DNA from: Ignavibacteriota bacterium
Lineage (GTDB): Bacteria > Bacteroidota > Ignavibacteria > UBA10030 > UBA6906
Assembly: GCA_963801355.1 (NCBI GenBank)
Contig: CAWDEM010000004.1
Coordinates: forward strand, 896,001-960,000
Direction: 5' to 3'
DNA length: 64,000 bases
In this document: positions 25,431 through 41,507 of the stretch, piece by piece
Layout of the letters: each line of letters starts with the position of its first letter
Numbering within the stretch: the first letter of the stretch is position 1
Position numbers and translations under genes: made by a program
The notes under the pieces: model-generated
What the model saw: only the letters and a program-made list of their open reading frames with translations
What the model was told of the DNA's origin: nothing
Database searches by the model: none

Positions 25431-26192
25431 TTGAAAAAACAGATCCCCGATCCCACCCTCCAACGGGAAAGCATCATCCCTCTCTACTACCAGCTCATGG
25501 AGATCCTGATTGATCAGATTGAAACAGGCCTCCTGAACCCCGGTGATCCCGTTCCCTCGGAAAATCAGCTGTGCAGGAAGTACGGTGTGAGCAAGAATAC
25601 CGTCCTTCAGGCAATCCAGGCTCTCGTGAACAAGAGGCTGATCTATCGCACACGGGGGAAAGGCACTTTTGTAGCGAACCCGAAGATCACGCAAAGCATC
25701 ACCTCGATGCTGAGCTTTTCATCGGAAATGGTGGGGCTCAACGGTTCATTGAAGAACAGATCGATCGAGTCCAAGGAAGTTCCCGCACTTCCCGCCATCG
25801 CCCGTCACCTCGGGATTCCCGAGAACATGCCCGTCTTTCACATTCAGATACTCCGGGAAGCGCAGGGGAAGCCGATCGCGCTTCAAACATCGTTTCTCCC
25901 GTCCGATCTCTGTCCGGGATTGATCCATACCCCTTTCGAAGGAGGGTCGCTGCTCAAGACGCTTCAGGACCGGTACGGGCTTCGGATCGACTCGGTCAGG
26001 GAGACATTTCAGGCCGTCAAATCGGATGCGTATGAAGCCAGGCTTCTTGAAATCAGGATCGGCGATCCGCTGGTGCTCCTCGAACGACTGTCCACCGAAA
26101 AAGGAGGACGGATCATCGAGCTGGTCAGGACGCTGCTGCGGGGAGATCGATGCAAGTTTGATATCGAACTGAAGAGAGGGACGACTTCATGA
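25431..26192 (+). CDS. GntR-family regulator, HutC subfamily (wHTH + UTRA)
   Basis: PLYYQL...PGDPVPSENQLCRKYGVSKNTV...RGKGTFV; UTRA-like C-domain; TTG start with GGAGG RBS. Confidence 0.93.
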   Translation: MKKQIPDPTLQRESIIPLYYQLMEILIDQIETGLLNPGDPVPSENQLCRKYGVSKNTVLQAIQALVNKRLIYRTRGKGTFVANPKITQSITSMLSFSSEMVGLNGSLKNRSIESKEVPALPAIARHLGIPENMPVFHIQILREAQGKPIALQTSFLPSDLCPGLIHTPFEGGSLLKTLQDRYGLRIDSVRETFQAVKSDAYEARLLEIRIGDPLVLLERLSTEKGGRIIELVRTLLRGDRCKFDIELKRGTTS

Positions 26193-26740
26193 ATCAATGG
26201 GAGTCCTGGATTGATCCATTCGTCCCCCCTCCGCCGGAGATCGAACTGGCCGGTGTGCGGCGGCCGTTCCTGACCCCGAAGCGGATTGCACGCATCTCCA
26301 TCTTCATCGCCCTGAGCGCCGTGGGCGCGATGACGAAGATTCCGAGTCCGACAGGAACGGTCGCGTTGGATTCGTGCATGGGGTATTTCTCTGCGGTTGC
26401 ATTCGGCTATGGCGAGGGCGCCATGGTTGCAGCGATGGGTCATCTGCTCACAGCTCTGACAACCGGGTTTCCCCTCGGCCTCCCCATACATCTCTACATT
26501 GCGTTGCAGATGGCTTGCTGGGTGATGGCGTACAGGTTCTTTGCGACCCGGATTCACCCGACTGTCGGGATCATTGTTGCGACGGCGCTCAACGGCATTG
26601 CCTCCGCCTATCTCATCGTCCCGTTTGGAGGAATCGGACTTGCCGCCGCACTCGTGGTCCCTCTGACCATCGGGTCATTTGCCAATGTGGCGATAGCCGC
26701 CGCTGCTTATGCGGTCGTCAAGAAGAGTAATCTCATCTGA
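26189..26740 (+). CDS. cblT: ECF S component, alpha-ribazole transporter CblT-like
   Basis: IALSAVGAMTKIPSPTGTVALDS...GHLLTALTTGFPLGLPIH matches my recollection of CblT; sits next to a CblS-like gene. Confidence 0.75.
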   Translation: MNQWESWIDPFVPPPPEIELAGVRRPFLTPKRIARISIFIALSAVGAMTKIPSPTGTVALDSCMGYFSAVAFGYGEGAMVAAMGHLLTALTTGFPLGLPIHLYIALQMACWVMAYRFFATRIHPTVGIIVATALNGIASAYLIVPFGGIGLAAALVVPLTIGSFANVAIAAAAYAVVKKSNLI

Positions 26741-26748
26741 GTGATTCT

Positions 26749-27573
26749 TTGGACATGGAACTACCATATCGTGACCTCCTGGCCAGGTACCGGAGCGCGG
26801 CAGCCGCACAGGGCGGCGGGATTTTCCGGACACGGCAAGTCCGCGATCTAACCGTGATCGACCTGCTCGGGGACCTCTCGTTTGTCGTTGCGGTCGACTC
26901 CGACGGAGGAATTGGACCCAAGCCTCACGACACCGTACAGACCACGGGGTACGTCTGCGGACGTTTCGCGACCAGGGTTCCGCTCATGGAGATCGTTGCC
27001 TGTGGTGCTCTGGCGGTTGCCGCTTTCGATGTGCTTGCGGTCGAGATGGAGCCGCTGGGAAAAGAAATCATCCGCGGTGTGAGAGACGAGCTTGCCGGCA
27101 TCGGCCTTGGTCCGGATTTCCCTCTTTCCGGCAGCACGGAAGATAATGTGCCGACGACGCAGACCGGCATGGGGGTCATGGTGATCGGTATCGTCGAACA
27201 GGCCCGCTTCCGGCCGGGAACCGCGCGCACACGTGATGCCGTGTACTGTGTGGGCATTCCGAAGTCCGGTCCACGTCATACGGTTATTCTGGGAGACCCG
27301 GAAATCGCCGACGCAGTCGCCGTGCTCGGCGCTGCCGCAGTAGAGGGCGTCCACGACATTCTTCCGGTGGGCTCCCGCGGTATCAGGTACGAAGCACATC
27401 AACTGGCCGTCTCGGCGCAGAGGGGCTTCACTCCGGCCACAGAGTGCGCCATCGATGTCGGGATCTCGGCGGGCCCATCTACCTGTTTTCTGGTCTCCGG
27501 GGCGGAGGGGCTTACAGAGTCTCTGCGGGACCGCACGCACAAGCCGGTGTCCATTGTCGGCAGGATTTCATGA
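26749..27573 (+). CDS. cblS: AIR-synthase/PurM-fold kinase, alpha-ribazole kinase CblS-like
   Basis: VRDLTVI...VAVDSDGGIGPKPHD...RVPLME...EMEPLG...GSTEDN...ILPVGSRGI...SAGPSTC. Confidence 0.78.
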   Translation: MDMELPYRDLLARYRSAAAAQGGGIFRTRQVRDLTVIDLLGDLSFVVAVDSDGGIGPKPHDTVQTTGYVCGRFATRVPLMEIVACGALAVAAFDVLAVEMEPLGKEIIRGVRDELAGIGLGPDFPLSGSTEDNVPTTQTGMGVMVIGIVEQARFRPGTARTRDAVYCVGIPKSGPRHTVILGDPEIADAVAVLGAAAVEGVHDILPVGSRGIRYEAHQLAVSAQRGFTPATECAIDVGISAGPSTCFLVSGAEGLTESLRDRTHKPVSIVGRIS

Positions 27574-29327
27574 ACGAACAACCAGCCATTGCGGAAGCAC
27601 GCGCAGTAGGCTATGCATACCCCCGGATGAACGTGCCGGCGCTGCAGGGCGTGTCACTCAGGATACGCGCCGGCGAGTTCGTTGCGCTCATGGGGCGGAC
27701 GGGAGCCGGGAAGACCACACTGCTCTCCTTGCTGAACGGCCTCATCCCGCAATTCCATGAGGGGGAGTTCTCGGGTGACGTCGTCGTCAGCCACATGAAC
27801 ACCCGCCGGTACCGCGTCCAGACACTTGCCCGGCGGGTGGGAATGGTGTTGCAGGATACGGAAGCGCAGATTATCGGCTCCACGGTCTTTAACGATGTCG
27901 TCTTTGGTCCGTGCAACCTCGGGCTTCCGCGTGCTCAGGTGATCGACAACGCACGGAACGCACTTGAGGCGGTCGCCCTGACGGGGTTTGAGGATCGTCT
28001 GCCCACAACCCTCTCGGGCGGAGAAATGCAGCGGCTCGCCGTTGCAGGCGTACTCGCCATGGAACCGGTGCTCCTCGCGCTGGACGAACCCACTTCGGAG
28101 CTCGATCCCCTCACGGCGGTCACCCTGTTCGAGTTGCTGGACCGTCTACGCCGTGCCCGCCCCATGGCCATTGTGCTCTCTTCCCATGACACGGAATTGG
28201 TTGCACGATACGCTGATCGACTCCTGGTCGTTGACAGCGGAAGCGTGGTGTGGGATGGTCCTCCCCTGGAGCTCTTCTCCGATGTGTCGCGCTGCCGTGA
28301 GTACGGAATCAGACCACCACAACTCATGGAGCTTCTCACCCGTGTACAGGCGATGGCAATGCTCCCGCCCGGGTCTGCTGGTCTTACCGTGGATGAAGTT
28401 GCCGGTCTCCTCCGTCCCCTCATTGCGCGGGGTGTCGCAAGCAGCCCGGCTGCCGACCCTGCACCTCATGCGACCACGAGCGTCCCGGCAGCGATCGTCA
28501 TTGACGGACTGCATCATGCGTACGGCAATTCGGTCGAGGCCCTGCAGGGTGTCTCCTTGATGATCCAGCAGGGCGAGTTTGTTGCGATTGTGGGGAGAAA
28601 CGGTGCCGGCAAAAGCACACTGGCGAAGCATCTGAACGGACTGTTGCGGCCCGATGCGGGCCATGTGCTTGTCAACGGCAAGGACACGCGCTCCTGCCCG
28701 GTTGCACGCCTCAGCCATGAAGTCGGTTTTGTCTTTCAGAATCCGGATCATCAGATCTTCTGTTCATCCGTCACTGAGGAGCTGGCATTCGGCCTGCGGC
28801 ATGCCGGAGACATTTCTCCGGCCGAAGCCCGCCTGCGGATTCAATCGGCACTCGAATTTGTCGGCCTCCAGGAAATGGGTGATCGTCATCCCTGTACTCT
28901 CGGGAAAGGCGAAAGGCAACTTCTGGCTGTCGCGACCGTGCTGGCCGTTGCCCCGCCAATCATCGTCATTGATGAGCCGACGACCGGTCTTGACTGGCAA
29001 GGAACACAACGCATGATGACCCTCATCCATGCGCTGCACGAGCGACAGCATACGATTATCATCATCACACACGACATGCAGCTGGCCGCGGAACATGCCG
29101 GGCGCATCGTGGTGATGAAGGCGGGCCGTGTCGTTGCCGACGGCTCACCGGCAGCGGTTTTCAAGGAGACAGCAACCATCAAGGATGCATCGCTTGCCCT
29201 TCCTCCGATGGCGGAGCTGGCGCATGCGGTTGTTGATGGGCGGGAGCCGTTGCCGGCGGTCACGCTGGAGCAAATGATATCTCTGCTGCCCCACCCGGCT
29301 CAGGAAGGACACAGGTATGCTCACTGA
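27570..29327 (+). CDS. ecfA: ECF transporter fused double ATPase (A-A')
   Basis: Two NBDs: GRTGAGKT/LSGGEMQR/LDEPT and GRNGAGKS/FQNPDHQ/IDEPT; ATGA-coupled to cblS. Confidence 0.9.
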   Translation: MNEQPAIAEARAVGYAYPRMNVPALQGVSLRIRAGEFVALMGRTGAGKTTLLSLLNGLIPQFHEGEFSGDVVVSHMNTRRYRVQTLARRVGMVLQDTEAQIIGSTVFNDVVFGPCNLGLPRAQVIDNARNALEAVALTGFEDRLPTTLSGGEMQRLAVAGVLAMEPVLLALDEPTSELDPLTAVTLFELLDRLRRARPMAIVLSSHDTELVARYADRLLVVDSGSVVWDGPPLELFSDVSRCREYGIRPPQLMELLTRVQAMAMLPPGSAGLTVDEVAGLLRPLIARGVASSPAADPAPHATTSVPAAIVIDGLHHAYGNSVEALQGVSLMIQQGEFVAIVGRNGAGKSTLAKHLNGLLRPDAGHVLVNGKDTRSCPVARLSHEVGFVFQNPDHQIFCSSVTEELAFGLRHAGDISPAEARLRIQSALEFVGLQEMGDRHPCTLGKGERQLLAVATVLAVAPPIIVIDEPTTGLDWQGTQRMMTLIHALHERQHTIIIITHDMQLAAEHAGRIVVMKAGRVVADGSPAAVFKETATIKDASLALPPMAELAHAVVDGREPLPAVTLEQMISLLPHPAQEGHRYAH

Positions 29328-30126
29328 GTACCGGCCGGGGAACTCTCTTCTGCACCAGCTGGATGTCCGGACAAAGCTGTTCTGTTTTGTGGTGGCAATC
29401 GTCCTGGCATTCGGTTTTCAGCATCCCCTCATCAACGGAGCTATCCTGCTCGGTCTGTTTATTCTGGCGTGGTCCATGCGGCTGCCCCTGCAGGGAATCG
29501 GCCGCATGCTGGGTCTGCTGGCGCCCGTTTTCGCCGTCATGTTTGCTGTGACGGCTTTCACCTTCACCCCTGAGCGGTTCACTACCGCCGCCGCACAGCG
29601 GGTGCTCTTTTTCCTCTTTCCGGGAGACGCAGCGCCGCTGACGGTGGGAGGGATTCTTGTGGGTCTGACCCTTGTGTGCCGTATGGGTATTTTTGTCCTT
29701 GCGTCATCGCTGTTTGCACAGACAACGCCGGTTGATGATTTCCTGCGGTTGGGCCGCCGCCTGAAGATCTCACAGAAATTTGCATTCATCATCACGATGG
29801 CTGTCCGGTTTGTTCCCACTATGGAAGGAAAAGCTGCGCAAGTACTCGACGCGCAGCGGGCCCGGGGCCTGGATATTTCAGAAGGGGGTTTCTTCGGACG
29901 CATGCGTGCGTACCTGACACTGATGATTCCCATGGTGGTGGACAGCATCCGGATGTCGGAGACGCTGGCTATCTCCATGGTCAACCGGGGCTTCGGTGCC
30001 ACAAAACAATCGACGCAGCTTGAGGATTTGAAGATGCGGCGAGCAGACTATGTCACCATCGTGATCACCTGCGCAGTGCTGTTAACAGGCCTTCTGATGA
30101 TGCGCGGCGGCATAGGTGTCCTCTAA
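29317..30126 (+). CDS. ecfT: ECF transporter transmembrane T component
   Basis: YRPGNSLLHQLDVRTKL, RFVP, AQRARG and SMVNRGF (paired xRG motifs). Confidence 0.92.
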   Translation: MLTEYRPGNSLLHQLDVRTKLFCFVVAIVLAFGFQHPLINGAILLGLFILAWSMRLPLQGIGRMLGLLAPVFAVMFAVTAFTFTPERFTTAAAQRVLFFLFPGDAAPLTVGGILVGLTLVCRMGIFVLASSLFAQTTPVDDFLRLGRRLKISQKFAFIITMAVRFVPTMEGKAAQVLDAQRARGLDISEGGFFGRMRAYLTLMIPMVVDSIRMSETLAISMVNRGFGATKQSTQLEDLKMRRADYVTIVITCAVLLTGLLMMRGGIGVL

Positions 30127-30139
30127 AGGACGGTCAACA

Positions 30140-31156
30140 ATGATCAGTGAACAAGCCTTCTTTAGAAAAGCCTTCGGGTGTCTTGCCGGTGTAGCATGCG
30201 GTGATGCGATGGGGATGCCGACATCCATGATGTCTCCCGACGCCGTCCGCAAGGCATTTCCACAGGGAATCGACGCCTTCAGGCCGCCACCGCCGGGGCA
30301 CCCGATTCACGGAGGGTTGCTTGCCGGACAGGTGACTGATGATACCATGCAGACACTTGTTGTGGCCGACGCCATCCTTGACGACAGGGGGGTCATCCCG
30401 CGCAACCTGGCGCTGGGTCTTCTCCGCTGGGCCGAAAGTCTGAATGGCTTTCAGTCCTCGTTGCTCGGGCCGAGTTCCCTCCGCGCGCTGCGCGCCATCA
30501 AGGAAGGGAAGGATATCAATGAAACCGGCGCATTCGGAGATACGAATGGTGCATGCATGAGGATTGCCCCTGTCGGGATCATCCACGCAGGAGAAATTCT
30601 CGAAACTGTTGACGACGTCGCCCTTGCCTGCCTTCCAACACACAACACCAACATTGCGATCGCGGGTGCTTCGGCGGTGGCATGTGCGATTGCGGCCGGC
30701 ATCACCGGCGTTGACGGCATCAACGGTGTCTTGCAGGCGGCACGTGTCGGGGCTGAGCTTGGCATGCAGAGAGGGCGTCCCTGGTATGGGGCATCCATCA
30801 CCGCGCGTCTGGACCTCGCACGGCACTATGGCGCCCTGCACCCGACGGACGAGAAGTTCCTCGGCTATCTCTATGACATCATCGGTGCGGGTGTGGCAGT
30901 GACAGAGACCGTTCCCGCGTGTCTCGCTCTCGTGGAGTTCGCAGGCGGTGATCCGGTGCGGACCATCACCCTTGCCGCGAATCTGGGCGGGGACGCCGAC
31001 ACCATTGCCTCCATCGCCGGAGGAATCGCGGGAGCCTATGCCGGCATCGACGCATTTCCGGCGGCGTTACTGCAGACCATCGAGACGGTCAATCATCTTG
31101 ATCTGGAGACGTACGCGTACAGGCTGACCCAGTTCGCTCTGTACCGAAGAAAATGA
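30140..31156 (+). CDS. ADP-ribosylglycohydrolase (ARH/DraG) family protein, YegU-like
   Basis: GDAMGMP, GQVTDDT, LGPS, TNGACMRIAP, PTH, ETVP, GGDADTIASIAG. Confidence 0.92.
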   Translation: MISEQAFFRKAFGCLAGVACGDAMGMPTSMMSPDAVRKAFPQGIDAFRPPPPGHPIHGGLLAGQVTDDTMQTLVVADAILDDRGVIPRNLALGLLRWAESLNGFQSSLLGPSSLRALRAIKEGKDINETGAFGDTNGACMRIAPVGIIHAGEILETVDDVALACLPTHNTNIAIAGASAVACAIAAGITGVDGINGVLQAARVGAELGMQRGRPWYGASITARLDLARHYGALHPTDEKFLGYLYDIIGAGVAVTETVPACLALVEFAGGDPVRTITLAANLGGDADTIASIAGGIAGAYAGIDAFPAALLQTIETVNHLDLETYAYRLTQFALYRRK

Positions 31157-31190: not shown

Positions 31191-33020
31191 GTGAACGCAT
31201 ACGGCCATCTCATCATTCTTGCACTCGCGACCACTGTGTCCGCCCTAACAGCGAACGCACAGCACGCAACGGTGGTTGTTCCGTCTTCCACGCGCCTGAC
31301 CTTTGCAGTCATGGGTGATCCGCAGCCCGAGGAACCTCCGACCGAGGAACCCCTTGCGTTCCGGGAAATCCTCCGCGACCTGCATGCGTTGAACCCTGAT
31401 GCGATCATGATCGTGGGAGACCTGATCAGAGGATTTACCGACGATTCTCTGATGCTCCGCCGGGAGTGGGAGGGCTTCTTTGCGGCGGTACGGGGATTCA
31501 CGATTCCCTTTATGTATGCTGTCGGGAATCATGATATCTGGGATGAGCGGAGCCAGAGGGAATACCTCAAGCACTTTGGCAGTCTGTACGGCTCCTGGGA
31601 CATCGGTGCAGTCCATTTTATCAGCCTGAACAGCTTCGACCTTGGTGGGCACAACACCATCCCCGCCGGGCAGCTGGAGTGGCTGCGAAACGACCTGGAA
31701 GCCCATCGATCGGCCCGTCACATTTTTGTGGGTGTGCACACCCCGCTCTGGGCGTTCGGGAACGCCAGCAACTGGCAGAGTGAAGTCCACCCACTGCTCA
31801 GGCGGTACAATGTCAGGGCTGTGTTTGCCGGACACTGGCATATCTATCAGCGCTCCGGGATACAGGACGGCATCCGCTACTACATCACCGGAGGGGCGGG
31901 CGGGATGATGCCGGAAACCTCCACCGGCACCGGCGATTTCCACCACTACATGCTGATCTCCGTCCGTGACGACAGCGTCTCCTATGCTGTCATGACACCC
32001 GGCTCTGTGATGAAGGATGATATTGTGACCAGGGAAAGCTCCGCTTTCTTCATGAAACTGGCCGATGAAGTTGTCGGCGATCCCCGCCTCCTTCTCCGGG
32101 ATGACTCTTCCGCAACGGCCACAGCAACAGTGCGGGTGAAGAACGTATTCGCCGCTCCGCTCCACGGGAACCTCCGATGGGTCCTCTCCCCGGAAATGTT
32201 CACGCTGGATCGGTATGAACGGGAATTTGTGCTTGCGCCGGGTGACCGGGCCGACCTCCGTTTCGCATTCACCGCGCGCGCCGGGTCCACTTCTGCATTT
32301 ACCACCCGACCCAGACCCCGTTTTGAATGCACTCTCCGCCTCGGTGATTCGGCACTCGGGCCCCCCGTCACCAAAGAACTGGTCATCGTACACACCGTAG
32401 CGTCTGTGCAACTGCACGGACGCATGGCCATCGATGGCAATCTGGCCGACTGGCCGGGCTCGTGGCCGATCACGATTGCATCCCGTAGCCAGGTAACGCT
32501 TGTGCCCGGACGATGGGCCGGGCCACAGGAGTCATCGGGCGAATTTGCGGTCGCTCTGGGTGACTCGGAGCTCTATTTCGCCGGCCGTGTGGTTGATCCC
32601 GACATCCTGCATGCAAGCCGCGAAGCTGAGCCGTATCAGGCCGATGCTGTCTCGCTCTACCTCGACCTTCGTGATTCCCTCAGTTTTCAACAACGATTCT
32701 TCACCGACGGCATCTTCCTTGCGGTGTTTGCACCGGAATCCGACGATCACCGGAAGGCCTACTGGATATCGGTCTATCCCAATGCGCATCCGATGAAAGA
32801 TATCAGGTTCGGATCACAACGTACGGATGACGAGTACACCGTTGAAGCGTCAATCCCGCTCCGGGAATTACCCCATTTCCCCGGGAGGGGATCAACCGTT
32901 GGCCTGGACGTGTGCATCGACAACCTTCAGGCAAACGGCAACCGGACCAGACTGCTCTGGAACGGGATATGGGCGAATTTCATGTATGCCAATCGTTACG
33001 GACTTCTCCATCTCCGGTGA
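31191..33020 (+). CDS. Secreted calcineurin-like metallophosphoesterase with C-terminal CBM9-like domain
   Basis: Signal peptide; GDPQ, VGDL, GNHD, GHWH motifs; C-terminal IDGNLADW...YTVEASIP. Confidence 0.85.
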   Translation: MNAYGHLIILALATTVSALTANAQHATVVVPSSTRLTFAVMGDPQPEEPPTEEPLAFREILRDLHALNPDAIMIVGDLIRGFTDDSLMLRREWEGFFAAVRGFTIPFMYAVGNHDIWDERSQREYLKHFGSLYGSWDIGAVHFISLNSFDLGGHNTIPAGQLEWLRNDLEAHRSARHIFVGVHTPLWAFGNASNWQSEVHPLLRRYNVRAVFAGHWHIYQRSGIQDGIRYYITGGAGGMMPETSTGTGDFHHYMLISVRDDSVSYAVMTPGSVMKDDIVTRESSAFFMKLADEVVGDPRLLLRDDSSATATATVRVKNVFAAPLHGNLRWVLSPEMFTLDRYEREFVLAPGDRADLRFAFTARAGSTSAFTTRPRPRFECTLRLGDSALGPPVTKELVIVHTVASVQLHGRMAIDGNLADWPGSWPITIASRSQVTLVPGRWAGPQESSGEFAVALGDSELYFAGRVVDPDILHASREAEPYQADAVSLYLDLRDSLSFQQRFFTDGIFLAVFAPESDDHRKAYWISVYPNAHPMKDIRFGSQRTDDEYTVEASIPLRELPHFPGRGSTVGLDVCIDNLQANGNRTRLLWNGIWANFMYANRYGLLHLR

Positions 33021-33042: not shown

Positions 33043-34071
33043 ATGAGCGACACAACGGAGTGGTCGGCGCGGGTGCGGAAGATGCCCAAGGTGGAACTCC
33101 ATCTCCATCTTGAAGGTGCCTTCACGCTCGAGACGCTCCTCAGGCTCATCAGGAAGCATGAGCCCTCCTCGTCGATCCACTCGACGGATGATCTGCAGGC
33201 GCGGTTGACCTACACCGACTTCTCCGGTTTCATCGATGCGTGGAACTGGAAGAATTCCTTTTTTCGGTCTGGCAAAGACTTTGAGCTCCTGGCATACCAT
33301 ACGCTCGAGTCGCTGAGCCGGCAGAATGTTCTGTATGTTGAGCCGTTCTTTTCACCCTGGGATTTCGAGGACAACGGCATCAGTATGGAAGAGATCACGG
33401 AGTCCATTCTCGCCGGCTGCGCCCGCGCGACGCGCGACTCCGGTATCGAATGGAATCTCATCGCCGATATCAACCGGGAGCACGGTCCGGAAAAGGGAAT
33501 GGCACGGATCGAACAGATTCTCCGGTACCGTGACCGCGGGGTGATCGGCGTCGGGTTGGGGGGGAGGGAGAAAGAATATCCGGCGGAGCGATTTGCACAG
33601 GTCTACGCGCAGGCGGACCGGGGGCGCTTGCTGCTCACCGCGCACGCAGGCGAAGCGGATGGACCGGCATCGATCCGGGCGGCGCTCGACCGGCTTCACG
33701 TCCATCGCATCGGGCACGGCATCAGGGCGCGCGAGGATGACGCTTTGATGGCACAGCTGGCTGAACGGAAGATACCGCTCGAAGTGTGTATCACCAGCAA
33801 TGTGAAGACGGGCGTGGTGCCGTCGTTGCGCGGGCATCCGGTGCGCACACTCTTCGACCGGCATCTGTATGTCACGATCAACAGTGATGACCCCACAATG
33901 TTTGATTGCTCTCTCACGGGAGAATATCTCTTGCTGCTCGAGCAGCTGGGATTCACGCCCGCCGAGATCAAAACCCTGAGCCTGAACGGAGTCACGGCAT
34001 CGGGGCTGGATGAGCATGCGAAGCTGAAGCTCTGTTCTCGCTTCGAGGAATTCTGGACGCAGTATCTCTGA
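33043..34071 (+). CDS. add: Adenosine/adenine deaminase family protein
   Basis: PKVELHLHLEG, AHAGE, RIGHG, EVCITSN, NSDDP. Confidence 0.9.
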   Translation: MSDTTEWSARVRKMPKVELHLHLEGAFTLETLLRLIRKHEPSSSIHSTDDLQARLTYTDFSGFIDAWNWKNSFFRSGKDFELLAYHTLESLSRQNVLYVEPFFSPWDFEDNGISMEEITESILAGCARATRDSGIEWNLIADINREHGPEKGMARIEQILRYRDRGVIGVGLGGREKEYPAERFAQVYAQADRGRLLLTAHAGEADGPASIRAALDRLHVHRIGHGIRAREDDALMAQLAERKIPLEVCITSNVKTGVVPSLRGHPVRTLFDRHLYVTINSDDPTMFDCSLTGEYLLLLEQLGFTPAEIKTLSLNGVTASGLDEHAKLKLCSRFEEFWTQYL

Positions 34072-34092: not shown

Positions 34093-35025
34093 ATGAAGAA
34101 GCTCACGCACGTTCCCGGACAGAACATCGCGGGCATTGTCTGCTTGATGGTCCTGGCTGCCTCTCCGCTGTTCGGGCAGATCAGGATTGTCAGCCTTTCG
34201 CCGACGCCTACCGAAATTGTGTACGCGCTGGGGGCCGGAGGACAGCTCGTCGGCGCCACCAGCGTGTGCATCGAGCCCCCGGAAGTCCTGCGCGACATTG
34301 CAGAAGGCAGGGTGAAAATCGTCAGCAACTTCAACACTACAGACTTCGCCTTGATCGACTCCCTGAAGCCCGGCCTGATTCTCACGGATACGGACTTCCA
34401 GCGTAAAATTACCGCGGAGCTTCGCGCCAAAGGCTACAAAGTGCTCCACTATGTTCCCAGGACTCTGCGCGATGTCTTCCAGAGTATGGAGGAGATCGGT
34501 GAAGCTATCGGGAAGGGCGCGTACGCCCGCCAGCTGACCGCGCAGTACTGGGCCGAGATCGATTCCATTAAAGCGAAAAGCCGGACCCTCCAGAAAACCC
34601 GCGTCTATATAGAGATCAACCATATCGGTCCGTGGGCGGTGGGCGCGATTTCTCCGCTGAACGATCTCATCGAGGCCGCCGGTGGACAGAACATCTTTGC
34701 CGACAGCGCCTGCGGGGTGTTCAAAACGACGAACGAAGAGATCGTCCGCCGGAACCCGGAAGTGATTCTTTCTCCCATCTGGCTTCATGCAAAGCTGGGG
34801 CGGTACGATGGGATTACACCGCTTGCTGAGATCTATGCGCGCAAAGGATATGACTCCACCGCGGCTGTTCAGCGGAGCCGCGTACTCTACTATGATTCCG
34901 CCCTGCTGAAGCATGAAGGTCCCCGCCAGGTGCTGGCGATCCGCAAGCTGGCGCGCATTCTGCATCCCGAGGTCTTTCCGGACCCCCCGGGAACGATCCC
35001 CTGGGAGCTCGGATGGATCAGATGA
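34093..35025 (+). CDS. btuF: Periplasmic cobalamin/Fe-siderophore-binding protein (BtuF-like)
   Basis: RIVSLSPTPTEIVYALG, AGGQNIF, EEIVRRNPEVI, GPR; signal peptide. Confidence 0.8.
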   Translation: MKKLTHVPGQNIAGIVCLMVLAASPLFGQIRIVSLSPTPTEIVYALGAGGQLVGATSVCIEPPEVLRDIAEGRVKIVSNFNTTDFALIDSLKPGLILTDTDFQRKITAELRAKGYKVLHYVPRTLRDVFQSMEEIGEAIGKGAYARQLTAQYWAEIDSIKAKSRTLQKTRVYIEINHIGPWAVGAISPLNDLIEAAGGQNIFADSACGVFKTTNEEIVRRNPEVILSPIWLHAKLGRYDGITPLAEIYARKGYDSTAAVQRSRVLYYDSALLKHEGPRQVLAIRKLARILHPEVFPDPPGTIPWELGWIR

Positions 35026-36278
35026 ACGAGGCAGCCACAGTATCGGAGACAAAAGACACCGCGATGAAGCAAGAATTTCTCGTTGCCAATCCTGATCTGG
35101 CGCCGGAAGGGCGCCGCAAAATCGAATGGGTGGCCCCCCGGATGCCGGTGCTCAACCGTTTGTGCGACCGTTTTCGCGCGGACGATGTTTTCCAGGGGAG
35201 GACCCTCGCCGTTTCCGTCCACCTCGAAGCAAAGACCGCCTACCTCTGCCTGGTGATGAAGAAGCTCGGGGCGGATGTGTGGGCGACGGGGAGCAACCCC
35301 TTCTCCACCAAAGACGACGTGACGGCCGCCCTGGTCGAAGAAGGTATCCACGTCTTCGCGCGCCACGGGGTCAGCGAGCAGGAGCACCGGACCGAATTGG
35401 CATTCATCACGAACGCGAGACCCGAAGCAGTGCTCGACGACGGAGCGGATCTTTGTATGGCGCTCCATGCGCAGCCCGAGCGCGGCAACCGGCTCAGAGG
35501 CCTCAGCGAAGAGACGACGACCGGGGTGCGCCGCCTCCAGCATCTTGCCGCGGAGGGGAAACTGCTCTTTCCCGCGATCACCGTGAACAATGCGAAATCC
35601 AAGCACCTCTTCGACAACCGGTATGGCACCGGACAGTCGACCTGGACAGCCATCACGCACCTGACGAATATGAACGTCGCCGGGCGGACGGTGGTGATTC
35701 TCGGCTACGGCTGGGTGGGGATGGGTGTTGCCTCTCAAGCGCGGGGCATGGGGGCGCACGTTGTGGTGACGGAGGTCGATCCCTGGAAGGCTCTGGAAGC
35801 CCACATGGATGGATTCACGGTGATGCCGCTGGAATCGGCAGCGCGCATCGGCCACATCTTTGTCACGGCGACCGGACTGGAAGGAATCTTGCGGACGGAG
35901 CATATCGCGCTAATGCCCGAGGGCGCGCTGATCGCCAATGCCGGCCATTCCGACCTGGAAACCGATGTCCCCGGCCTTCGCACAATAGCCAGGTCGGTAC
36001 GGGAAGCACGGGAGAATGTCTACGGCTATCTTCTCCCGAACGGAAGGAATGTCTTTCTGCTTGCCGACGGACGCATCGTGAATATCGCCGGCGGATTCGG
36101 TCATCCCGTAGAAATTATGGATATGTCCTTCTCACTCCAGCTGGCGTCGCTCCACTATTTGTTGCGCACTCCACAGCGCGATCCCGGGATCTACGCTCTG
36201 CCCACGGAGATCGACGAACTTGTGGCCAGGGAAAAACTCGCCGCCGAAGGAGTGGCAATTGACGCAGTAAAGAGTTGA
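35022..36278 (+). CDS. ahcY: S-adenosyl/S-inosyl-homocysteine hydrolase
   Basis: HLEAKTA, SNPFST, LDDGAD, EETTTG, KHLFDNRYGT, GYGWVG, NAGH, GHP; ATGA-coupled to btuF. Confidence 0.92.
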   Translation: MNEAATVSETKDTAMKQEFLVANPDLAPEGRRKIEWVAPRMPVLNRLCDRFRADDVFQGRTLAVSVHLEAKTAYLCLVMKKLGADVWATGSNPFSTKDDVTAALVEEGIHVFARHGVSEQEHRTELAFITNARPEAVLDDGADLCMALHAQPERGNRLRGLSEETTTGVRRLQHLAAEGKLLFPAITVNNAKSKHLFDNRYGTGQSTWTAITHLTNMNVAGRTVVILGYGWVGMGVASQARGMGAHVVVTEVDPWKALEAHMDGFTVMPLESAARIGHIFVTATGLEGILRTEHIALMPEGALIANAGHSDLETDVPGLRTIARSVREARENVYGYLLPNGRNVFLLADGRIVNIAGGFGHPVEIMDMSFSLQLASLHYLLRTPQRDPGIYALPTEIDELVAREKLAAEGVAIDAVKS

Positions 36279-36311
36279 CATTCTCAGATCTCAGTGTATC
36301 ATGGAGGCAAT

Positions 36312-38195
36312 ATGAAGCATTTCCTGTGTACATCGCTGGCGTTGTTCGCGCTGTCGGCAGTCCTGCTTGTCGCACCGGCGGCTTCGCAGCAGGACACACT
36401 CAAGCTTTCGGAAAAAGTCTCCACGTCGGAGGCCGTGCTGACGCGGGCGGACTTCAAGCGACTGGCGTGTGAGAATGTCGGGGACGCGCTGAAGAATATC
36501 ACCGGCGTGTATGTCCGCAATGGCCAAATTGCACTCCGCGATGTGGCCCCGGACAAAGTGGTGATTCTCCTTGACAATCAGCGTTTGAACACCGCTCAGG
36601 GAGGAGGCGTCGATGTCATCACCCTCCCGATCGATATCGTGGAAAAAGTAGAAGTTATCCGCGGGGGAAGTTCGGCATTGTACGGTGCGGATGCAGTCGG
36701 AGGCGTCATCAAGATCACGACACGGGGAAAATCCACGGAACAGGCAAGCCAGATCAACGCCAATGCGCATGTGACTGTCGCGTCCTTTCATACGTTTGTG
36801 ACAGCCCTGGATCTGGCACACCGGATCGACCATCTGAACTACCTGGTATCATACAAGCGGACCACATCCCGCGGGGACTACGACTACGTGACGCCCACGA
36901 CCGGCGTCAAAGGCCCCTGGCTGAACAACGACCAATCCATCCATGACCTGTTTCTCAAAGGGTCCTATGCACTCTCCGACGAAGCAACCTTTGCACTCTC
37001 CGGCAGCATGTACAATGCGGGCACGGGAGCCCCGGGGATCATCGATCAATTGACTCCGTTTGCGCGATTGGGCTACAACAACAAGAACATCAATGCCGCC
37101 TATGACCAGGCGAACGTCTTCGGCAACTTTGGCCTGAAGGTGCAGACGTATTTCCTCTTCTTTGAGTTGACGTACAAGAATCCCGTGGGCATTGCGCCAT
37201 CGGATAGCAAGCATGACAACGACGCGATTTCGTTTGAGGTCCAACAGACCGGGTCCGTCAGCGATCATCTCGAACTTGCCTACGGCTACACGTATCGTCA
37301 TGACAAGCTCACGAGCACAGATATCGGCAGACGCGACCGTAACAACCATGCCGCGTATACTATGGCCACGGTGGGTTTCAAGGAGATCCCCTTCTTCTTT
37401 GACGAGATGTCCATTACCCCGGCGCTGCGCTACGACTATCCCTCCGACTTCCGCGCAGAGTGGAGCCCGAAGATTTCGGTGGTGCTCAAGCACAGTGGTA
37501 CCTTTTCACTCACGCTCAAGTCGCACGTCACCCGTTCCTACCGGGCCCCGACGTTCAACGACCTCTATTGGCCGAAGGACAGCTATTCAGAGGGAAACCC
37601 GAACCTCGTTCCGGAGATCGGCGTGAACTACGACGCCGGCATTTCAATCAGCTACCCCCTGCTGGGTGAAGTCACGTTGAGCAGCAACTATTACGTCAAC
37701 AACCTTGATAATCTGATTCTCTGGGCCCCCGGGGGCGACGGTCTCTGGCGCCCGAGCAACATTTCGAAGACTGAAGGGCACGGTATCGAGACCGCGTTCC
37801 GGTGGAAACCCCTTGGTGATGTTCTCGAGCTGGGTGCGGACTACACCTATATGCAGGCCCTCGACAAAAGCGAGTCCAAGGCGACGCGAAACAAAGACCT
37901 TATTTACCGGCCGCGCAACAAATTTGATATCACGCTGGGGCTCCGCCTGTTTGGAGTCGAGCTCAATGTGATGGATCACTTTGTGGGGAAACGGTACACG
38001 ACAGCGGCAAATACGAAGTGGCTCGATGCCTATAATGTTGTCGACGGCAATATCGGTTATTCCTTCAAAGCATGGGATTTCAACTGGTCGCTCAAATTCG
38101 AAACGAACAATCTCGCCGACCTCAATTACACGGCGGTGGAGGGGTCCCCTGTGCCCGGCCGTGAACTGCGGTTTACGCTCGGGTGCGGATTCTGA
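36312..38195 (+). CDS. TonB-dependent receptor, BtuB-like
   Basis: Signal peptide; plug EVIRGGSSALYGADAVGGVI; YRAPTFNDLYW...GNPNLVPE; C-terminal F. Confidence 0.9.
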   Translation: MKHFLCTSLALFALSAVLLVAPAASQQDTLKLSEKVSTSEAVLTRADFKRLACENVGDALKNITGVYVRNGQIALRDVAPDKVVILLDNQRLNTAQGGGVDVITLPIDIVEKVEVIRGGSSALYGADAVGGVIKITTRGKSTEQASQINANAHVTVASFHTFVTALDLAHRIDHLNYLVSYKRTTSRGDYDYVTPTTGVKGPWLNNDQSIHDLFLKGSYALSDEATFALSGSMYNAGTGAPGIIDQLTPFARLGYNNKNINAAYDQANVFGNFGLKVQTYFLFFELTYKNPVGIAPSDSKHDNDAISFEVQQTGSVSDHLELAYGYTYRHDKLTSTDIGRRDRNNHAAYTMATVGFKEIPFFFDEMSITPALRYDYPSDFRAEWSPKISVVLKHSGTFSLTLKSHVTRSYRAPTFNDLYWPKDSYSEGNPNLVPEIGVNYDAGISISYPLLGEVTLSSNYYVNNLDNLILWAPGGDGLWRPSNISKTEGHGIETAFRWKPLGDVLELGADYTYMQALDKSESKATRNKDLIYRPRNKFDITLGLRLFGVELNVMDHFVGKRYTTAANTKWLDAYNVVDGNIGYSFKAWDFNWSLKFETNNLADLNYTAVEGSPVPGRELRFTLGCGF

Positions 38196-38218: not shown

Positions 38219-40447
38219 ATGTCAAAGCTCCTGGTTCTTGTTGTCTTGATCCTCTGCAGCTCTGTGCCATTGCAGGCGCAGGACGGCGGCGTGGTGTCCG
38301 GAAGGGTGTTGGAAAAAACCTCCCGGCACCCGATTCCGGGAGCGAACGTCTTCGTCGAGGGGACAGTCCTCGGGGTGTGCACCAACGGAGAGGGATACTT
38401 CGAGATTACGGCTGTTCCTCCGGGACCACACCGTATCCGTGCGAGCGCCGTGGGGTATGCCGCGTCGACAGCCGACATTGTCGTTTCCGGGCAGAATGGC
38501 GCGACCCTGATCTTCCGCCTGGAGGAGACGGTCTACCAGGTGAACCCCGTGACCGTGACGGCAACACGGGAACGCTCGCTGGTGAGCGACGTGCCCGCCG
38601 TCGTGGATGTGATTCCCGCACGAGAGCTGGAGCAGCGGAACATACAGGATATCGGCCAGGCTGTGGAGCGGCTTCCCGGTGTGCGCGTGAACACGTATGG
38701 CACGCTGGGCGACCTGAAAACGGTCTCCATCCGCGGATCCACCGCGAGCCAGGTGCTTGTGCTCGTGGATGGACAGCGAGTGAACAACGCCCAGACAGGT
38801 CAGGTGGACCTCAGCACGATTCCAACGGAGGGGATCGAGACCATCGAGGTGGTGCGCGGCGGGACATCCGCCCTGTACGGGGCGGACGCTGTCGGCGGGG
38901 TCATCAACGTCATCACGAAATCCCATCCGCACGAGTCATCGTTCGCTGCCGGGGCGAACGTCACCGGCGGATCATTCGGCATGAGGGGTCTGGAGGTAAA
39001 CTCGACTCTTTCCAGCGAGGCCACGTTCGGCTTCCTGTCGTACAAGTATCTCGTCACCGATGGGGACTTTGAGTACACCACGCCCCTCGGCGAAAGACAG
39101 AAGAGACAGAATGCGGATTTCCGTTCCCACAGCCTCTTTGGAAAAGCCAAATGGACTCTCGGAGAAGAAGGCCTGGGCGGATCGATTGCGGCATCCGCAC
39201 AGGCCCACTTTGCGCGATCGGGATCTCCCGGCTCGATTGAACAGCCCAAGTATGATGCCCGCAAAAAGGAAGGAGATCAGTCCGTCAATCTGGTGTTTGA
39301 GCACAAGCTCGGATCGCCCTACAACAGTGTGAAGCTGCAATCGTACGTTATGAATTCCGAGTACAACTACGATGATGCCGGATCGGCGTATCCCGAGCAT
39401 TCATACAGCCACAACATCGCATGGGGAGCAGAAGCGCAGGCAAAACTCATTGCGACGGACTGGAGTACCGTGACGGGGGGGTATGCTGTCAGACGCGACT
39501 ATTTGTCCGGCACCACTACGGTCACACCGCCGCGGCGGACGCTGCACAGCATCTACGCCCAGACCGAGCTCTCACCGCTTCTCGGCAGCAGTAGTTTCCT
39601 CCGGAGGGTTATCGCCATCCCTGCGGTGCGGTGGGACAGTTTCTCCGATTTTGGCGAGGAGATAAGTCCGAAGATCGGCGTCGTGCTGAGTGCCGGGACT
39701 GTCTGGCAAGCTTCACTGAAGACCAACTACGGATCATCCTTCCGGGCTCCTTCGTTCAACGACCTGTATTGGCCGAAGGACGCATTCTCGGCTGGAAATC
39801 CGGAGTTGAAGCCGGAGTTGGGGAAGGACTTCGATGCCGGGTTCATGGTGCGCCTGCCTCTCCTTGTCGGTCTGGGCATCGACGCCACGTATTTTCACAA
39901 CACCGTCGATGATCTGATTCTGTGGCAACAGGGGGCGGGCGGGCTCTGGAGCCCGACGAACGTGGGCAAGGCAAACATCAGCGGCCTTGAGTCGAGGGTG
40001 TCACTGGACCCCTGGAAGGGGCTCCTGCGTGTGGAGTGGACCTACACCTATCTGGATGCACGGAACAAGACGGAGAAGCACACGGAGTATGACAAGAGAC
40101 TACCCTACCGCTCCCGTCATGCGCACACGCTCTCGGCCGGCGCGACATGGGGTGACCTGTCCGCGCTTGTGGAGTTTTCCTACTTCTCCTCCCGGTACAC
40201 GAACACGGCGAACACGATTCTTCTGGATCCCTATCATGTCACGAATGTCATTGCAGGCGCCACTATCCTGCATGACCCGGTGTCGGCGGACCTGAAGCTG
40301 GAAATCAGAAACCTCGAGGACCTGGAGTACAAGGCGATGGAAGGATTTCCCATGCCGGGGAGGGAATTGCGTCTCTCCCTGAACGTCAAGTTTGCACAGC
40401 TGTACGATGCACATCAAACCCAAGGAGAGCAAATTGGGAAACCATAA
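38219..40447 (+). CDS. TonB-dependent receptor, BtuB-like, with N-terminal carboxypeptidase-regulatory-like domain
   Basis: SGRV...PIPGANV...GYFEI; TonB box VTVTATR; EVVRGGTSALYGADAVGGVINVIT; FRAPSFNDLYW; 17-aa extension after the expected terminal F. Confidence 0.9.
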   Translation: MSKLLVLVVLILCSSVPLQAQDGGVVSGRVLEKTSRHPIPGANVFVEGTVLGVCTNGEGYFEITAVPPGPHRIRASAVGYAASTADIVVSGQNGATLIFRLEETVYQVNPVTVTATRERSLVSDVPAVVDVIPARELEQRNIQDIGQAVERLPGVRVNTYGTLGDLKTVSIRGSTASQVLVLVDGQRVNNAQTGQVDLSTIPTEGIETIEVVRGGTSALYGADAVGGVINVITKSHPHESSFAAGANVTGGSFGMRGLEVNSTLSSEATFGFLSYKYLVTDGDFEYTTPLGERQKRQNADFRSHSLFGKAKWTLGEEGLGGSIAASAQAHFARSGSPGSIEQPKYDARKKEGDQSVNLVFEHKLGSPYNSVKLQSYVMNSEYNYDDAGSAYPEHSYSHNIAWGAEAQAKLIATDWSTVTGGYAVRRDYLSGTTTVTPPRRTLHSIYAQTELSPLLGSSSFLRRVIAIPAVRWDSFSDFGEEISPKIGVVLSAGTVWQASLKTNYGSSFRAPSFNDLYWPKDAFSAGNPELKPELGKDFDAGFMVRLPLLVGLGIDATYFHNTVDDLILWQQGAGGLWSPTNVGKANISGLESRVSLDPWKGLLRVEWTYTYLDARNKTEKHTEYDKRLPYRSRHAHTLSAGATWGDLSALVEFSYFSSRYTNTANTILLDPYHVTNVIAGATILHDPVSADLKLEIRNLEDLEYKAMEGFPMPGRELRLSLNVKFAQLYDAHQTQGEQIGKP

Positions 40448-40496
40448 CAGCGGGAAGCTCTCTCACCGCTCATGTATGCATTTTAGAGGAGGAATC

Positions 40497-41507
40497 ATGA
40501 AACTCAAAACCTTTGTCCTCTTCACCCTCACCGTTGCCATCGGATTGCTTGCCGGCTGTGAGAAGAGCGACGATGAAGTGACCGCCCCGCCTGCCACCTC
40601 AAAGGCGGTGTACGTCCTCAACGGATTGGGGAAGACGCTTTCGGTGATCGATCTGAACACCGGTGTTGCCACAAACAACGTGGCAACCGTCGGCCTCTAC
40701 CCGAACCATGTGCTCTATTACAGCGGCAAGTTGTTCGTTGTGAACTCCGGGTCGAATACCGTCCAGGTCTTCAACGCGGACAGCTATGCGTTGTTGGGCA
40801 CGATTACCCTTGCGGCGAACAGCAACCCGATGACGATCGCCATTCTGAATGACACCAAGGGCTACGTTGCCTGCTCCATGTCCAACTCGGTGGTCGTGGT
40901 GAATCCAACGACGTTTGCGGTGGTGAAGACCATTGCGGCGGGGGTCGGCACGTCGGGCATCGCGATTGCCAACGCGAAGGTGTATGCCTCCAACACTGCA
41001 TTTGACGGCCAGACATATGCCTACGGGCAGGGAACGGTGACGGTGATCAATACGACGACGGATGCGGTGAGCACGACCCTCAACGTCAGCAAGAATCCCC
41101 AGGCGATTGCCATCGCTCCTGACGGGAAGCTTCATGTGCTGTGCAGCGGCGACTATGGTGCAACCGTGGGATCTGTTGCGGTGATTGATCCGAGTACGGA
41201 TGCCATTGTGAAAAATCTGACGATCGGCGGCAGTCCGGGAAACATCACGATCGCTTCGAACAACATGGCCTATTGCGGTCTCTTCGGGACCGGGTTGATC
41301 ACGTACAATGCGTCCACGTATGCCATCAAGGATTCTTCGACAAATCCGTTATTGAAGAAGGGTGGTTCGGGGACCGTGGTCGACCTGTCCGGCAATATTT
41401 ATGTGGCGGACTTTTCCGGTGACCAGGTGATCATGCTGGACAACACGTACGCGCAGAAGAAGGTGTATGACGTGGGGGATGGTCCGCTGTCGATGAGTCT
41501 GAAGTAG
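40497..41507 (+). CDS. YncE/YVTN beta-propeller lipoprotein, BtuG-like
   Basis: Lipobox LLAG-C then EKSDDE; repeated blades (VYVLN..LSVID, LFVVNSGSNTVQV, GYVA..SVVVVN, VGDGP); follows the TonB receptors. Confidence 0.8.
   Translation: MKLKTFVLFTLTVAIGLLAGCEKSDDEVTAPPATSKAVYVLNGLGKTLSVIDLNTGVATNNVATVGLYPNHVLYYSGKLFVVNSGSNTVQVFNADSYALLGTITLAANSNPMTIAILNDTKGYVACSMSNSVVVVNPTTFAVVKTIAAGVGTSGIAIANAKVYASNTAFDGQTYAYGQGTVTVINTTTDAVSTTLNVSKNPQAIAIAPDGKLHVLCSGDYGATVGSVAVIDPSTDAIVKNLTIGGSPGNITIASNNMAYCGLFGTGLITYNASTYAIKDSSTNPLLKKGGSGTVVDLSGNIYVADFSGDQVIMLDNTYAQKKVYDVGDGPLSMSLK

Follow-up and report, generated by a model that had tools for sequence, protein, structure and literature searches.

A stretch of 64,000 nucleotides (nt) from an Ignavibacteriota bacterium (GenBank assembly GCA_963801355.1, contig CAWDEM010000004.1, positions 896,001 to 960,000 of the forward strand; hereafter the window) contains a 13-gene operon (g01 to g13, positions 25431-41507) that we read as a scavenging locus headed by receptors and built around a core for nucleoside breakdown. 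We consider its best explanation, at a probability of about 40%, to be a scavenging system under GntR-type control that captures and breaks down cobamide-type alpha-ribosides and a larger phosphorylated precursor. Two BtuB-like TonB-dependent receptors (TBDR1 and TBDR2), a BtuG-like lipoprotein and a BtuF-like periplasmic protein would capture the phosphorylated precursor, from which the exported phosphoesterase g07 would strip the phosphate in the periplasm. The freed riboside would be imported by a dedicated energy-coupling factor (ECF) transporter with a CblT-like S component, phosphorylated by the CblS-family kinase g03 and split by the YegU-type ARH hydrolase g06 into a free base and ribose-5-phosphate. 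Finally, the deaminase g08 and the AhcY paralog g10, of the S-inosyl-L-homocysteine (SIH) hydrolase type, would handle the adenine or adenosyl side, giving hypoxanthine compounds and homocysteine.

The substrate is probably a cobamide lower-ligand alpha-riboside (for example alpha-ribazole or an adeninyl alpha-riboside), occurring free or after release from corrinoids. We infer this and every other substrate; the link to cobamides is drawn from four independent family resemblances (to CblT, CblS, BtuB/F and, above all, BtuG) and from the alpha-bond specificity of ARH-family enzymes, which cleave alpha-linked ribosyl bonds. An earlier note on this DNA, made from the letters and a list of open reading frames (ORFs), had proposed the capture of cobamides or related alpha-nucleotides at the surface, cutting of the nucleotide loop in the periplasm and breakdown of the imported alpha-riboside. 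This interpretation is partly supported: the gene set proves to be conserved, and the CblT/CblS family assignments and the absence of cobamide synthesis genes stand. The uptake proteins are not the canonical B12 importers, and cutting of the loop is a prediction.

A proposed riboside breakdown core

Over 332 residues, the hydrolase g06 shares 38% identity with E. coli YegU (197 bits); no solved ARH protein scores above 92 bits, and g06 lies nearer to YegU than to ARH1/3, DraG or MJ1187. It matches PF03747 over the full length of the profile and carries the motifs GDAMG, VTDDT and GGDADT; among its orthologs, GGD[CAS]DT is kept in 65/67 and GxAxGD[AS]xG in 67/67. The Asp and Thr residues of the ARH motifs are metal ligands. 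The original assignment of g06 to the ARH family holds, with its placement now corrected to the YegU subfamily, which in enteric bacteria belongs to generic nucleoside transporter and kinase modules.

According to excerpts of PMC10819704, E. coli yegTUV encodes a nucleoside-type transporter, an ARH protein and a PfkB kinase, is repressed by the GntR-type regulator YegW (also GgaR) and is described there as being of unknown function; the same excerpts give ADP-glucose as a proposed effector. The Salmonella operon STM4065-4066-4067 is of yegTUV-like make-up, and excerpts of PMC3161100 attribute aminoimidazole riboside kinase activity to STM4066. Our regulator g01 is 29% identical to YegW/GgaR over 145 residues. 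Across these operons and the loci described below, the importer beside the ARH gene is interchangeable among four unrelated nucleoside-type systems (ECF, CNT/NupC, Bmp/PnrA ABC or, for YegT of E. coli, NHS type), as is the kinase (CblS type, or PfkB type in E. coli yegTUV and Salmonella STM4065-4067). The swaps of importer and kinase point to one job: riboside uptake, phosphorylation and breakage of the glycosidic bond. The nucleoside theme of the operon is well supported, and the kinase presumably precedes the hydrolase in the pathway.

Conservation of the gene set

We searched for related loci using an alignment of kinase homologs as seed and one genome per species, which gave 80 loci; their six-frame ORFs were scored against the 13 window proteins, and the counts that follow use loci with enough flanking sequence. 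The kinase had an ARH gene beside it in 50/54 loci, the remaining four being L045, L067, L071 and L075, and of the 50 ARH-linked loci whose upstream flank reached 1.8 kb or more, 41 had a GntR gene. TBDR1 directly followed the ARH gene in 27/51 loci. The other 24 belong to monoderm Bacillota and Actinomycetota or to Acidobacteriota, together with L051 and L037 (in the latter, with intervening genes). TBDR2 came after TBDR1 in 25/25 loci and a beta-propeller gene after TBDR2 in 16/16, and an AhcY paralog was present in 10/10.

Overall, the conserved order spans Ignavibacteriota, Calditrichota, Fidelibacterota (Marinimicrobia), Bacteroidota, Lentisphaerota, Acidobacteriota, Bacillota and Actinomycetota, so that the search for shared neighbourhoods proposed in the earlier note found the gene set kept together across several phyla. 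Cultured carriers include Melioribacter roseus, Brevibacillus fluminis and Bacillus litorisediminis. In monoderms, the core form consists of GntR, S component, kinase, EcfAA', EcfT and ARH genes. In the diderm form, this core may or may not include its ECF genes and is joined by a phosphoesterase, the two receptors TBDR1 and TBDR2, the AhcY paralog, the deaminase and a nucleoside transporter of the CNT family, usually with a lipoprotein and a binding protein as well. CNT/NupC was the commonest family (10 members) among 132 neighbouring ORFs that matched none of the window proteins.

Within the phylum of the window, the kinase was found in only 3 of 201 sampled genomes. AhcY matches of more than 500 bits were confined to the same three genomes, on the same contig as the kinase, with none in the other 198; in the window's own family, none of the four genomes of this sample carried the kinase or the AhcY paralog. 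Because the kinase and AhcY paralog co-occur in so few genomes of the phylum and in none of the family, the system is rare, patchy and inherited as a block.

Two loci look like binning errors. The contig of L033, from a metagenome-assembled genome (MAG) labelled 'archaeon', holds a full diderm cluster including TonB-dependent receptors, and that of L051, from a 'Betaproteobacteria' MAG, holds a Bacillota-like cluster whose kinase nests among those of Bacillota.

The kinase and S component

The AlphaFold2 (AF2) model of g03 (predicted local distance difference test score (pLDDT), 94.1) has the PurM-superfamily fold of the CblS family, with HypE, PurM, ThiL and SelD as best folds (query-normalized TM-score (TMq), 0.53-0.68); the sequence had no NCBIfam match and no match to any solved structure. 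Its informative relatives are the kinases of L073 and L074 (46-47% identity, 189-193 bits), where a cobalamin riboswitch is followed by an S component and the kinase. In L073, the next gene encodes an aminotransferase that we take to be CobD-like. The ESM Atlas neighbour cluster of g03 is named 'alpha-ribazole kinase' (score 0.97). The S component g02 has an ECF S fold and resembles its riboswitch-linked counterparts in L073 and L074 (84-111 bits, versus 183-252 bits to cluster orthologs), and tblastn found no second copy of g02 or EcfT in the genome. On the strength of the L073/L074 relatives and the Atlas cluster name, the CblT-like and CblS-like calls first made for g02 and g03 are upheld at the level of family membership. 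By sequence relationship, g03 would be a CblS-family riboside kinase, predicted to phosphorylate alpha-ribosides.

We rejected a separate clade for ARH-linked kinases: a quick tree interleaves them, on long branches, with riboswitch-linked and CobS-linked kinases. Contig ends truncate the loci behind 6 of its 13 'no ARH' rows. No fused kinase forms were found among the longer proteins searched, a search that we rate as weak evidence. In two Atribacterota loci without ARH (L067 and L071), from CobS-positive genomes, the CblS-family kinase gene lies directly after a Bmp/PnrA nucleoside ABC transporter; this arrangement would be a variant of alpha-ribazole salvage with an ABC importer instead of ECF-CblT.

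Cobamide assembly genes

The genome of the window is 100% complete and contains no CobS, CobT or CobU, extending to the whole genome the absence of cobS and cobU that the earlier note had seen within the operon. No CbiZ-like gene was seen, nor one resembling CbiR, a cobamide remodelling enzyme. Because CobS, CobT and CobU are absent, the product of the kinase cannot enter a cobamide in this genome, and since the nucleotide loop cannot be assembled here, the route would be one of breakdown or recycling and not of B12 synthesis.

CobS was present in 6/6 genomes whose kinase locus shows no ARH gene (one of these loci, L074, ends right after the kinase). Among ARH-linked genomes, CobS was found in 4/34 and absent from 30/34; these are MAGs, and some of the absences may be gaps. 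Each of the four CobS-positive, ARH-linked genomes has a single CblS-family gene and none has CobT (0/4). In these genomes, no route to alpha-ribazole phosphate is visible other than the ARH-linked kinase.

Outer-membrane and periplasmic proteins

For both receptors, the best-matching model and structure is BtuB, at scores that stay below the cut-offs of the BtuB models (TIGR01779 and NF007926). Against the best NCBIfam model, TonB-B12, TBDR1 (g11) scored 143.5 bits and TBDR2 (g12) 230 bits, with a cut-off of 599.7. The best solved matches were 8bmx_C and 8blw_A for g11 (~79 bits), and BtuB1 of Bacteroides thetaiotaomicron (117 bits) and E. coli BtuB (116.7 bits) for g12; the two receptors are 34% identical to each other. 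The binding protein g09 scored 70 bits against the BtuF model NF002894 (cut-off, 234) and ~50 bits against E. coli BtuF structures.

The last gene, g13, follows a BtuB-like receptor gene and encodes a lipoprotein with a BtuG-like propeller. In a Foldseek search with its AF2 model (pLDDT 92.7), seven of the first eight matches and six more among ranks 10-17 were B12-binding lipoproteins of B. thetaiotaomicron. These matches (BtuG1/2/3, BT1954 and BT2095) had TMq values of 0.77-0.79 at 18-20% identity, compared with at most 0.65 for other propellers. Judging from this model, g13 may be a corrinoid-binding, BtuG-like lipoprotein.

The matches of the exported metallophosphoesterase g07, to purple acid phosphatases and to Rv0805, were all weak. 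In Melioribacter-type loci, a PHP-domain protein takes the place of g07, a swap that fits a need for periplasmic dephosphorylation.

The operon holds the only BtuB/G/F-like set in the window's genome. A single permease in the genome matches FecCD strongly; it is encoded 10 kb upstream of the operon, beside an ABC ATPase (Table 1). An MFS (ATG22-like) transporter and a small metallophosphoesterase of cytoplasmic type are encoded beside this pair (11869-13956, - strand), which has no binding-protein gene of its own. The pair may act as partner of g09.

The deaminase and AhcY paralog

Both g08 and g10 have better-scoring copies elsewhere in the genome, and we rejected them as housekeeping genes. 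Housekeeping Add scores 485 bits against NF006847 (cut-off, 412), making g08 a second copy, and the housekeeping ahcY, part of a metK-ahcY pair, scores 598 bits against TIGR00936 (cut-off, 497.6). Although g08 exceeds the TIGR01430 cut-off, it lacks the adenosine-deaminase motif HxHLDG, whose Asp contacts the ribose 5'-OH: its sequence reads LHLHLEG, versus LHDHLDG in housekeeping Add, and the Glu is kept in 8/8 cluster orthologs (HxH[LI]EG). The best solved match of g08, 3ou8 (173.6 bits), has the same HxHLEG motif. We take this structure to be the adenine deaminase Pa0148, for which deamination of adenine has reportedly been shown. The deaminase thus remains in the ADA family, as first assigned, with its type corrected to adenine-deaminase-like.

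The AhcY paralog carries HLEAK in g10 and in 18/18 cluster orthologs, whereas the housekeeping copy reads HVTKE. According to excerpts of Koeppl et al. (PMC10978960), HxExK instead of HxTxE(Q) marks AhcY homologs that prefer SIH, and of the two activities first proposed for g10, S-adenosylhomocysteine (SAH) or SIH hydrolysis, the motif points to the SIH type. Judged from these motifs, the branch points to adenine-to-hypoxanthine chemistry with release of homocysteine; it is joined to the core by co-inheritance only.

In two loci, an EamA-like (DMT) membrane protein with weak Pfam matches is encoded after the AhcY paralog and transporter (L059:19848-20795 and L052:19261-20193); the ORF at the same position in a third (L078:19747-20700) had no EamA match. 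The S-adenosylmethionine/SAH carriers of some intracellular bacteria belong to the EamA-like (DMT) superfamily.

Competing explanations

A number of observations weigh against a cobamide substrate. The scores of g11, g12 and g09 are far under the BtuB and BtuF cut-offs, and cobalamin riboswitches occur elsewhere in 22/28 carrier genomes. We fetched 17 of the stretches 3' of those riboswitches, 15 of them usable, and 10 of the 15 open with a different BtuB-like receptor, at 77-214 bits to g12 versus 420-550 bits for cluster orthologs; several also hold propeller, binding protein, FecCD and ATPase genes. Given these riboswitch-controlled BtuB-like sets elsewhere, the uptake proteins of the cluster are distinct paralogs and not the canonical B12 importer. 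The operon's uptake genes had at first been taken for the Bacteroides-type BtuB/BtuG/BtuF set: as nearest relatives these names are right, g13 having the BtuG fold and the receptors being closest to BtuB, but paralogy and sub-cut-off scores argue against a canonical importer.

Regulation points the same way. Scans for cobalamin riboswitches gave no match in the window, in the whole genome or in the 19 ARH-linked or contig-cut loci among 21 kinase loci scanned; the only matches in the 21 were in L073 (without ARH) and L074 (where the contig ends right after the kinase). On these scans we rejected riboswitch control of the cluster, including that of g02 expected for a CblT. CobS, expected as the companion of a CblS kinase, is missing from the genome that carries g03, and high-affinity uptake of a lower-ligand riboside by a CobS-less cell is hard to explain. 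The 25 commonest families of the 132 neighbouring ORFs include no cobamide-specific enzyme family, enteric YegU-type operons have no known B12 link, and the aminoimidazole riboside used by the Salmonella kinase is a beta-riboside. We know of no place for an SIH hydrolase in cobamide metabolism and could not bring it together with the kinase and the ARH hydrolase in a single pathway.

The strongest alternative, though on balance an unlikely one, is that the cluster scavenges an unusual riboside or nucleotide with no tie to cobamides, such as a modified nucleoside of purine or imidazole type derived from dead cells. In that case, common descent alone would account for the likeness to BtuB, BtuG, BtuF, CblT and CblS. 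Such a role suits the YegU-subfamily ARH, whose enteric operons combine a nucleoside transporter with a PfkB kinase acting, in Salmonella, on aminoimidazole riboside, and it suits the CNT nucleoside transporter as commonest extra partner and the Bmp-type nucleoside ABC systems. The ARH-linked cluster has no B12 riboswitch, carrier genomes have canonical B12 importers elsewhere, and the deaminase and SIH-type hydrolase point to adenine or hypoxanthine nucleosides. It is less easily reconciled with the fact that four separate components are nearest to characterized proteins of cobamide uptake or lower-ligand salvage. In the kinase tree, the riboswitch- and CobS-linked members branch among the ARH-linked kinases without forming a clade of their own, and in the four CobS-positive, CobT-negative genomes an ARH-linked kinase is the sole possible source of alpha-ribazole phosphate.

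We think it distinctly improbable that several independent modules were assembled into a mosaic operon under one regulator, all serving B12-dependent methionine synthesis. These would be a B12 importer (the receptors, lipoprotein and binding protein, together with the BtuCD-like pair encoded 10 kb upstream), a module of deaminase and SIH hydrolase that clears S-adenosylhomocysteine by deamination, and a YegTUV-like nucleoside module. The genome does have MetH without cobamide synthesis genes or a riboswitch, and its only BtuB/G/F-like genes lie in the operon with the only strong FecCD permease nearby. Monoderm loci carry just the regulator, ECF, kinase and ARH genes, and because they do, the core can work alone. 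However, module order is kept across phyla, the AhcY paralog tracks the kinase exactly (3/3 carriers, 0/198 others) and other carriers already own riboswitch-controlled B12 importers. A strict need for B12 is also unsupported, as the genome has a short MetE-like gene. This gene (G000:C4:1217635-1218613; 339 aa) has the Meth_synt_2 domain only, with its last 46 model positions in a second frame, and may be frameshifted. MetH is encoded by two adjacent ORFs (G000:C4:1103242-1106732) of 676 aa (model positions 2-612) and 588 aa (615-1182), which are either a natural split or a frameshift. The genome has seven B12-binding-domain matches, and in this organism the operon may in addition supply the split MetH and further B12-binding proteins with B12.

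The family membership of g02 and g03 would point to salvage of alpha-ribazole by the classical CblT/CblS route, for use in cobamide assembly, and this may hold in the four CobS-positive, CobT-negative carriers. In this organism such salvage is very improbable, being refuted by the absence of CobS, CobT and CobU from a 100%-complete genome (unless another enzyme replaces CobS), by the lack of a riboswitch and by a neighbouring hydrolase expected to destroy the product.

We also tried single-substrate ideas and rejected each as not fitting all parts: NAD or ADP-ribose, queuosine, methylthioadenosine or 5'-deoxyadenosine, poly(ADP-ribose) fragments, and adenosylcobalamin, from which the AhcY paralog would strip the adenosyl group.

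Scavenging of cobamide-type alpha-ribosides allows a stronger and more doubtful claim, that of a first breakdown pathway for the nucleotide loop of B12-type cofactors, in which the uptake paralogs would capture corrinoids or their fragments and the exported phosphoesterase would free the alpha-riboside for the kinase and N-glycosidase. Here, g03 and g06 are the predicted alpha-riboside kinase and alpha-riboside-5'-phosphate N-glycosidase. To our knowledge, the known lower-ligand enzymes (CbiZ, CbiR, CblS/T and CobT) all serve rebuilding and not breakdown.

The system bears on the turnover of environmental B12 analogues and their lower ligands. If the cobamide reading is true, a CblS-family kinase and hydrolase in genomes that mostly lack cobamide assembly would fill part of a gap in the ecology of this cofactor in sediments, soils and the sea, the orphan operons yegTUV of E. 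coli and STM4065-4067 of Salmonella would gain a testable function, and the handling of adenine-type ligands would gain a bacterial branch of ADA-family deaminase and SIH hydrolase. Even if the substrate is not derived from cobamides, the cluster is a widespread route for a nucleoside from the outer membrane to the cytoplasm. FCB-group bacteria (Ignavibacteriota, Bacteroidota and relatives) are also shown to harbour AhcY paralogs of the SIH type in combination with a deaminase of the ADA family.

Operon layout and other features of the window

An ORF check of the window placed 13 + strand ORFs in 25431-41507, at the coordinates first given, and the set is a real operon. The co-orientation of all 13 genes described in the earlier note was borne out by these coordinates and by reading of the junctions, its family calls were without exception confirmed by Pfam and NCBIfam profile searches, and the ATGA couplings that it had named (gntR/cblT, cblS/ecfA and btuF/ahcY) were read at 26189-26192 (g01/g02), 27570-27573 (g03/g04) and 35022-35025 (g09/g10). 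Overlaps of 11 nt, read from the sequence, join g04 to g05 and g05 to g06, and spacings of ~21-34 nt separate g06 from g07 and g08 from g09. Four probable starts are internal to the longest ORFs (ATG 27570 for g04, 32986 for g08, 36312 for g11 and 40497 for g13); that of g12, ATG 38219, rests solely on translation from that base. Signal-peptide-like N-termini were seen in g07, g09, g11 and g12, and a lipobox (LLAGC) in g13; g08 has no signal.

The hairpin said to close the operon was likewise found, GC-rich and without a clear T tract; the terminator pattern scan therefore did not list it, and it was read directly. Upstream of the GntR gene, three direct repeats at 17-nt spacing (TTCTCGGAGNTG-like; 25230-25292) and nested or overlapping palindromes at 25375-25415, including GGGTTAACCC at 25393-25402, are possible operators. 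The number of palindromes in 25168-25430 was not above chance, and a pattern scan of the same stretch found no sigma-70-like site upstream of g01. The four sigma-70-like sites in the region are no excess over shuffled sequences (5.7), so the site before TBDR1 is a lead only.

Elsewhere in the window, two ORFs of 446 and 477 aa on the - strand (17379-18719 and 23734-25167) match no Pfam family at E 1e-4, and an rRNA operon occupies 58863-64000 (16S, two tRNAs and a 23S gene running past the window end).

Table 1 Features of the operon and its surroundings, in window coordinates.
Feature	Position	Strand	Evidence or remark
BtuCD-like pair: FecCD permease (15335-16354) and ABC ATPase (14484-15263)	14484-16354	-	PF01032 318 bits
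Upstream intergenic region, candidate regulatory sites	25168-25430	.	putative function
g01, GntR/HutC-type regulator, winged helix and UTRA effector domain	25431-26192	+	PF00392 60 bits, PF07702 118.5 bits
g02, ECF S component, CblT-like	26189-26740	+	PF12822 45 bits
g03, predicted CblS-family PurM-fold riboside kinase	26755-27573	+	weak PF00586 (AIRS-N) match; ORF opens at TTG 26749
g04, fused EcfA-EcfA' ATPase	27570-29327	+	TIGR04521 457 bits (cut-off 330), TIGR04520 447.5 bits (cut-off 315)
g05, EcfT transmembrane component	29317-30126	+	PF02361 88 bits
g06, ARH-fold glycohydrolase, YegU subfamily	30116-31156	+	PF03747 207.5 bits, whole profile
g07, exported metallophosphoesterase, CBM9-like C-terminal domain	31191-33020	+	PF00149 57 bits, PF06452 41 bits
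g08, cytoplasmic ADA-family deaminase, HxHLEG	32986-34071	+	TIGR01430 296 bits (cut-off 216.55)
g09, periplasmic binding protein, BtuF/heme class	34093-35025	+	PF01497 (Peripla_BP_2) 76 bits
g10, AhcY paralog, S-inosyl-L-homocysteine hydrolase type (HxExK)	35022-36278	+	PF05221 and PF00670
Sigma-70-like site, TTGACA-16 nt-TATCAT, possible internal promoter before TBDR1	36275-36302	+	11/12 matches
g11, TonB-dependent receptor 1 (TBDR1), BtuB-like, without N-terminal extension	36312-38195	+	plug and barrel domains
g12, TonB-dependent receptor 2 (TBDR2), BtuB-like, CarboxypepD_reg domain	38219-40447	+	Pfam/NCBIfam
g13, surface lipoprotein, BtuG-like beta-propeller	40497-41507	+	lipobox LLAGC, AF2 model
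GC-rich hairpin, candidate terminator	41534-41561	+	10+8+10 nt, 27 nt past last stop

Comparison with known systems

The combination of genes, held in the earlier note to be undescribed, matched no title or abstract listed in our literature searches. Its parts have counterparts in several known systems. CblT/CblS alpha-ribazole salvage is known from Listeria and Geobacillus (Gray and Escalante-Semerena 2010, as cited in the excerpts of PMC6461909, PMC6167548 and PMC5064896), and our operon likewise pairs an ECF S component with a PurM-fold kinase of the same family. Unlike those systems, it has a GntR regulator instead of a riboswitch, a dedicated EcfAA'T and a YegU-type hydrolase, in a genome without CobS, CobT or CobU.

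The E. coli yegW(ggaR)-yegTUV and Salmonella STM4065-4067 operons share with ours the grouping of a GntR regulator, a nucleoside-type transporter, an ARH hydrolase and a kinase, but their kinase is of PfkB type, their transporter is not an ECF system and they have no outer-membrane, deaminase or AhcY parts. The Bacteroides BtuB-BtuG-BtuFCD system of corrinoid uptake (PDB 8blw, 8bmx, 8p97 and 8bn0, among others) resembles the operon in its receptor followed by a propeller lipoprotein and in its BtuF-class protein; the operon differs in having tandem receptors, no riboswitch and no permease, and in the 18-20% identity of its lipoprotein to BtuG. As in the deaminase and SIH hydrolase route of Methanocaldococcus and Thermotoga, to the extent that excerpts of PMC10978960 describe it, an HxExK AhcY is encoded near a deaminase. 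In contrast to that route as given in the same excerpts, the deaminase of the operon is of the ADA family (PF00962) and not DadD or MtaD, and the genome retains a metK-ahcY pair. Finally, CbiZ and CbiR remodelling differs in that the candidate cutter of our cluster is an exported metallophosphoesterase or PHP protein, with no rebuilding enzymes, but if scavenging of cobamide-type alpha-ribosides is the right reading, both would begin by detaching the lower-ligand nucleotide (for CbiZ, excerpts of PMC6461909).

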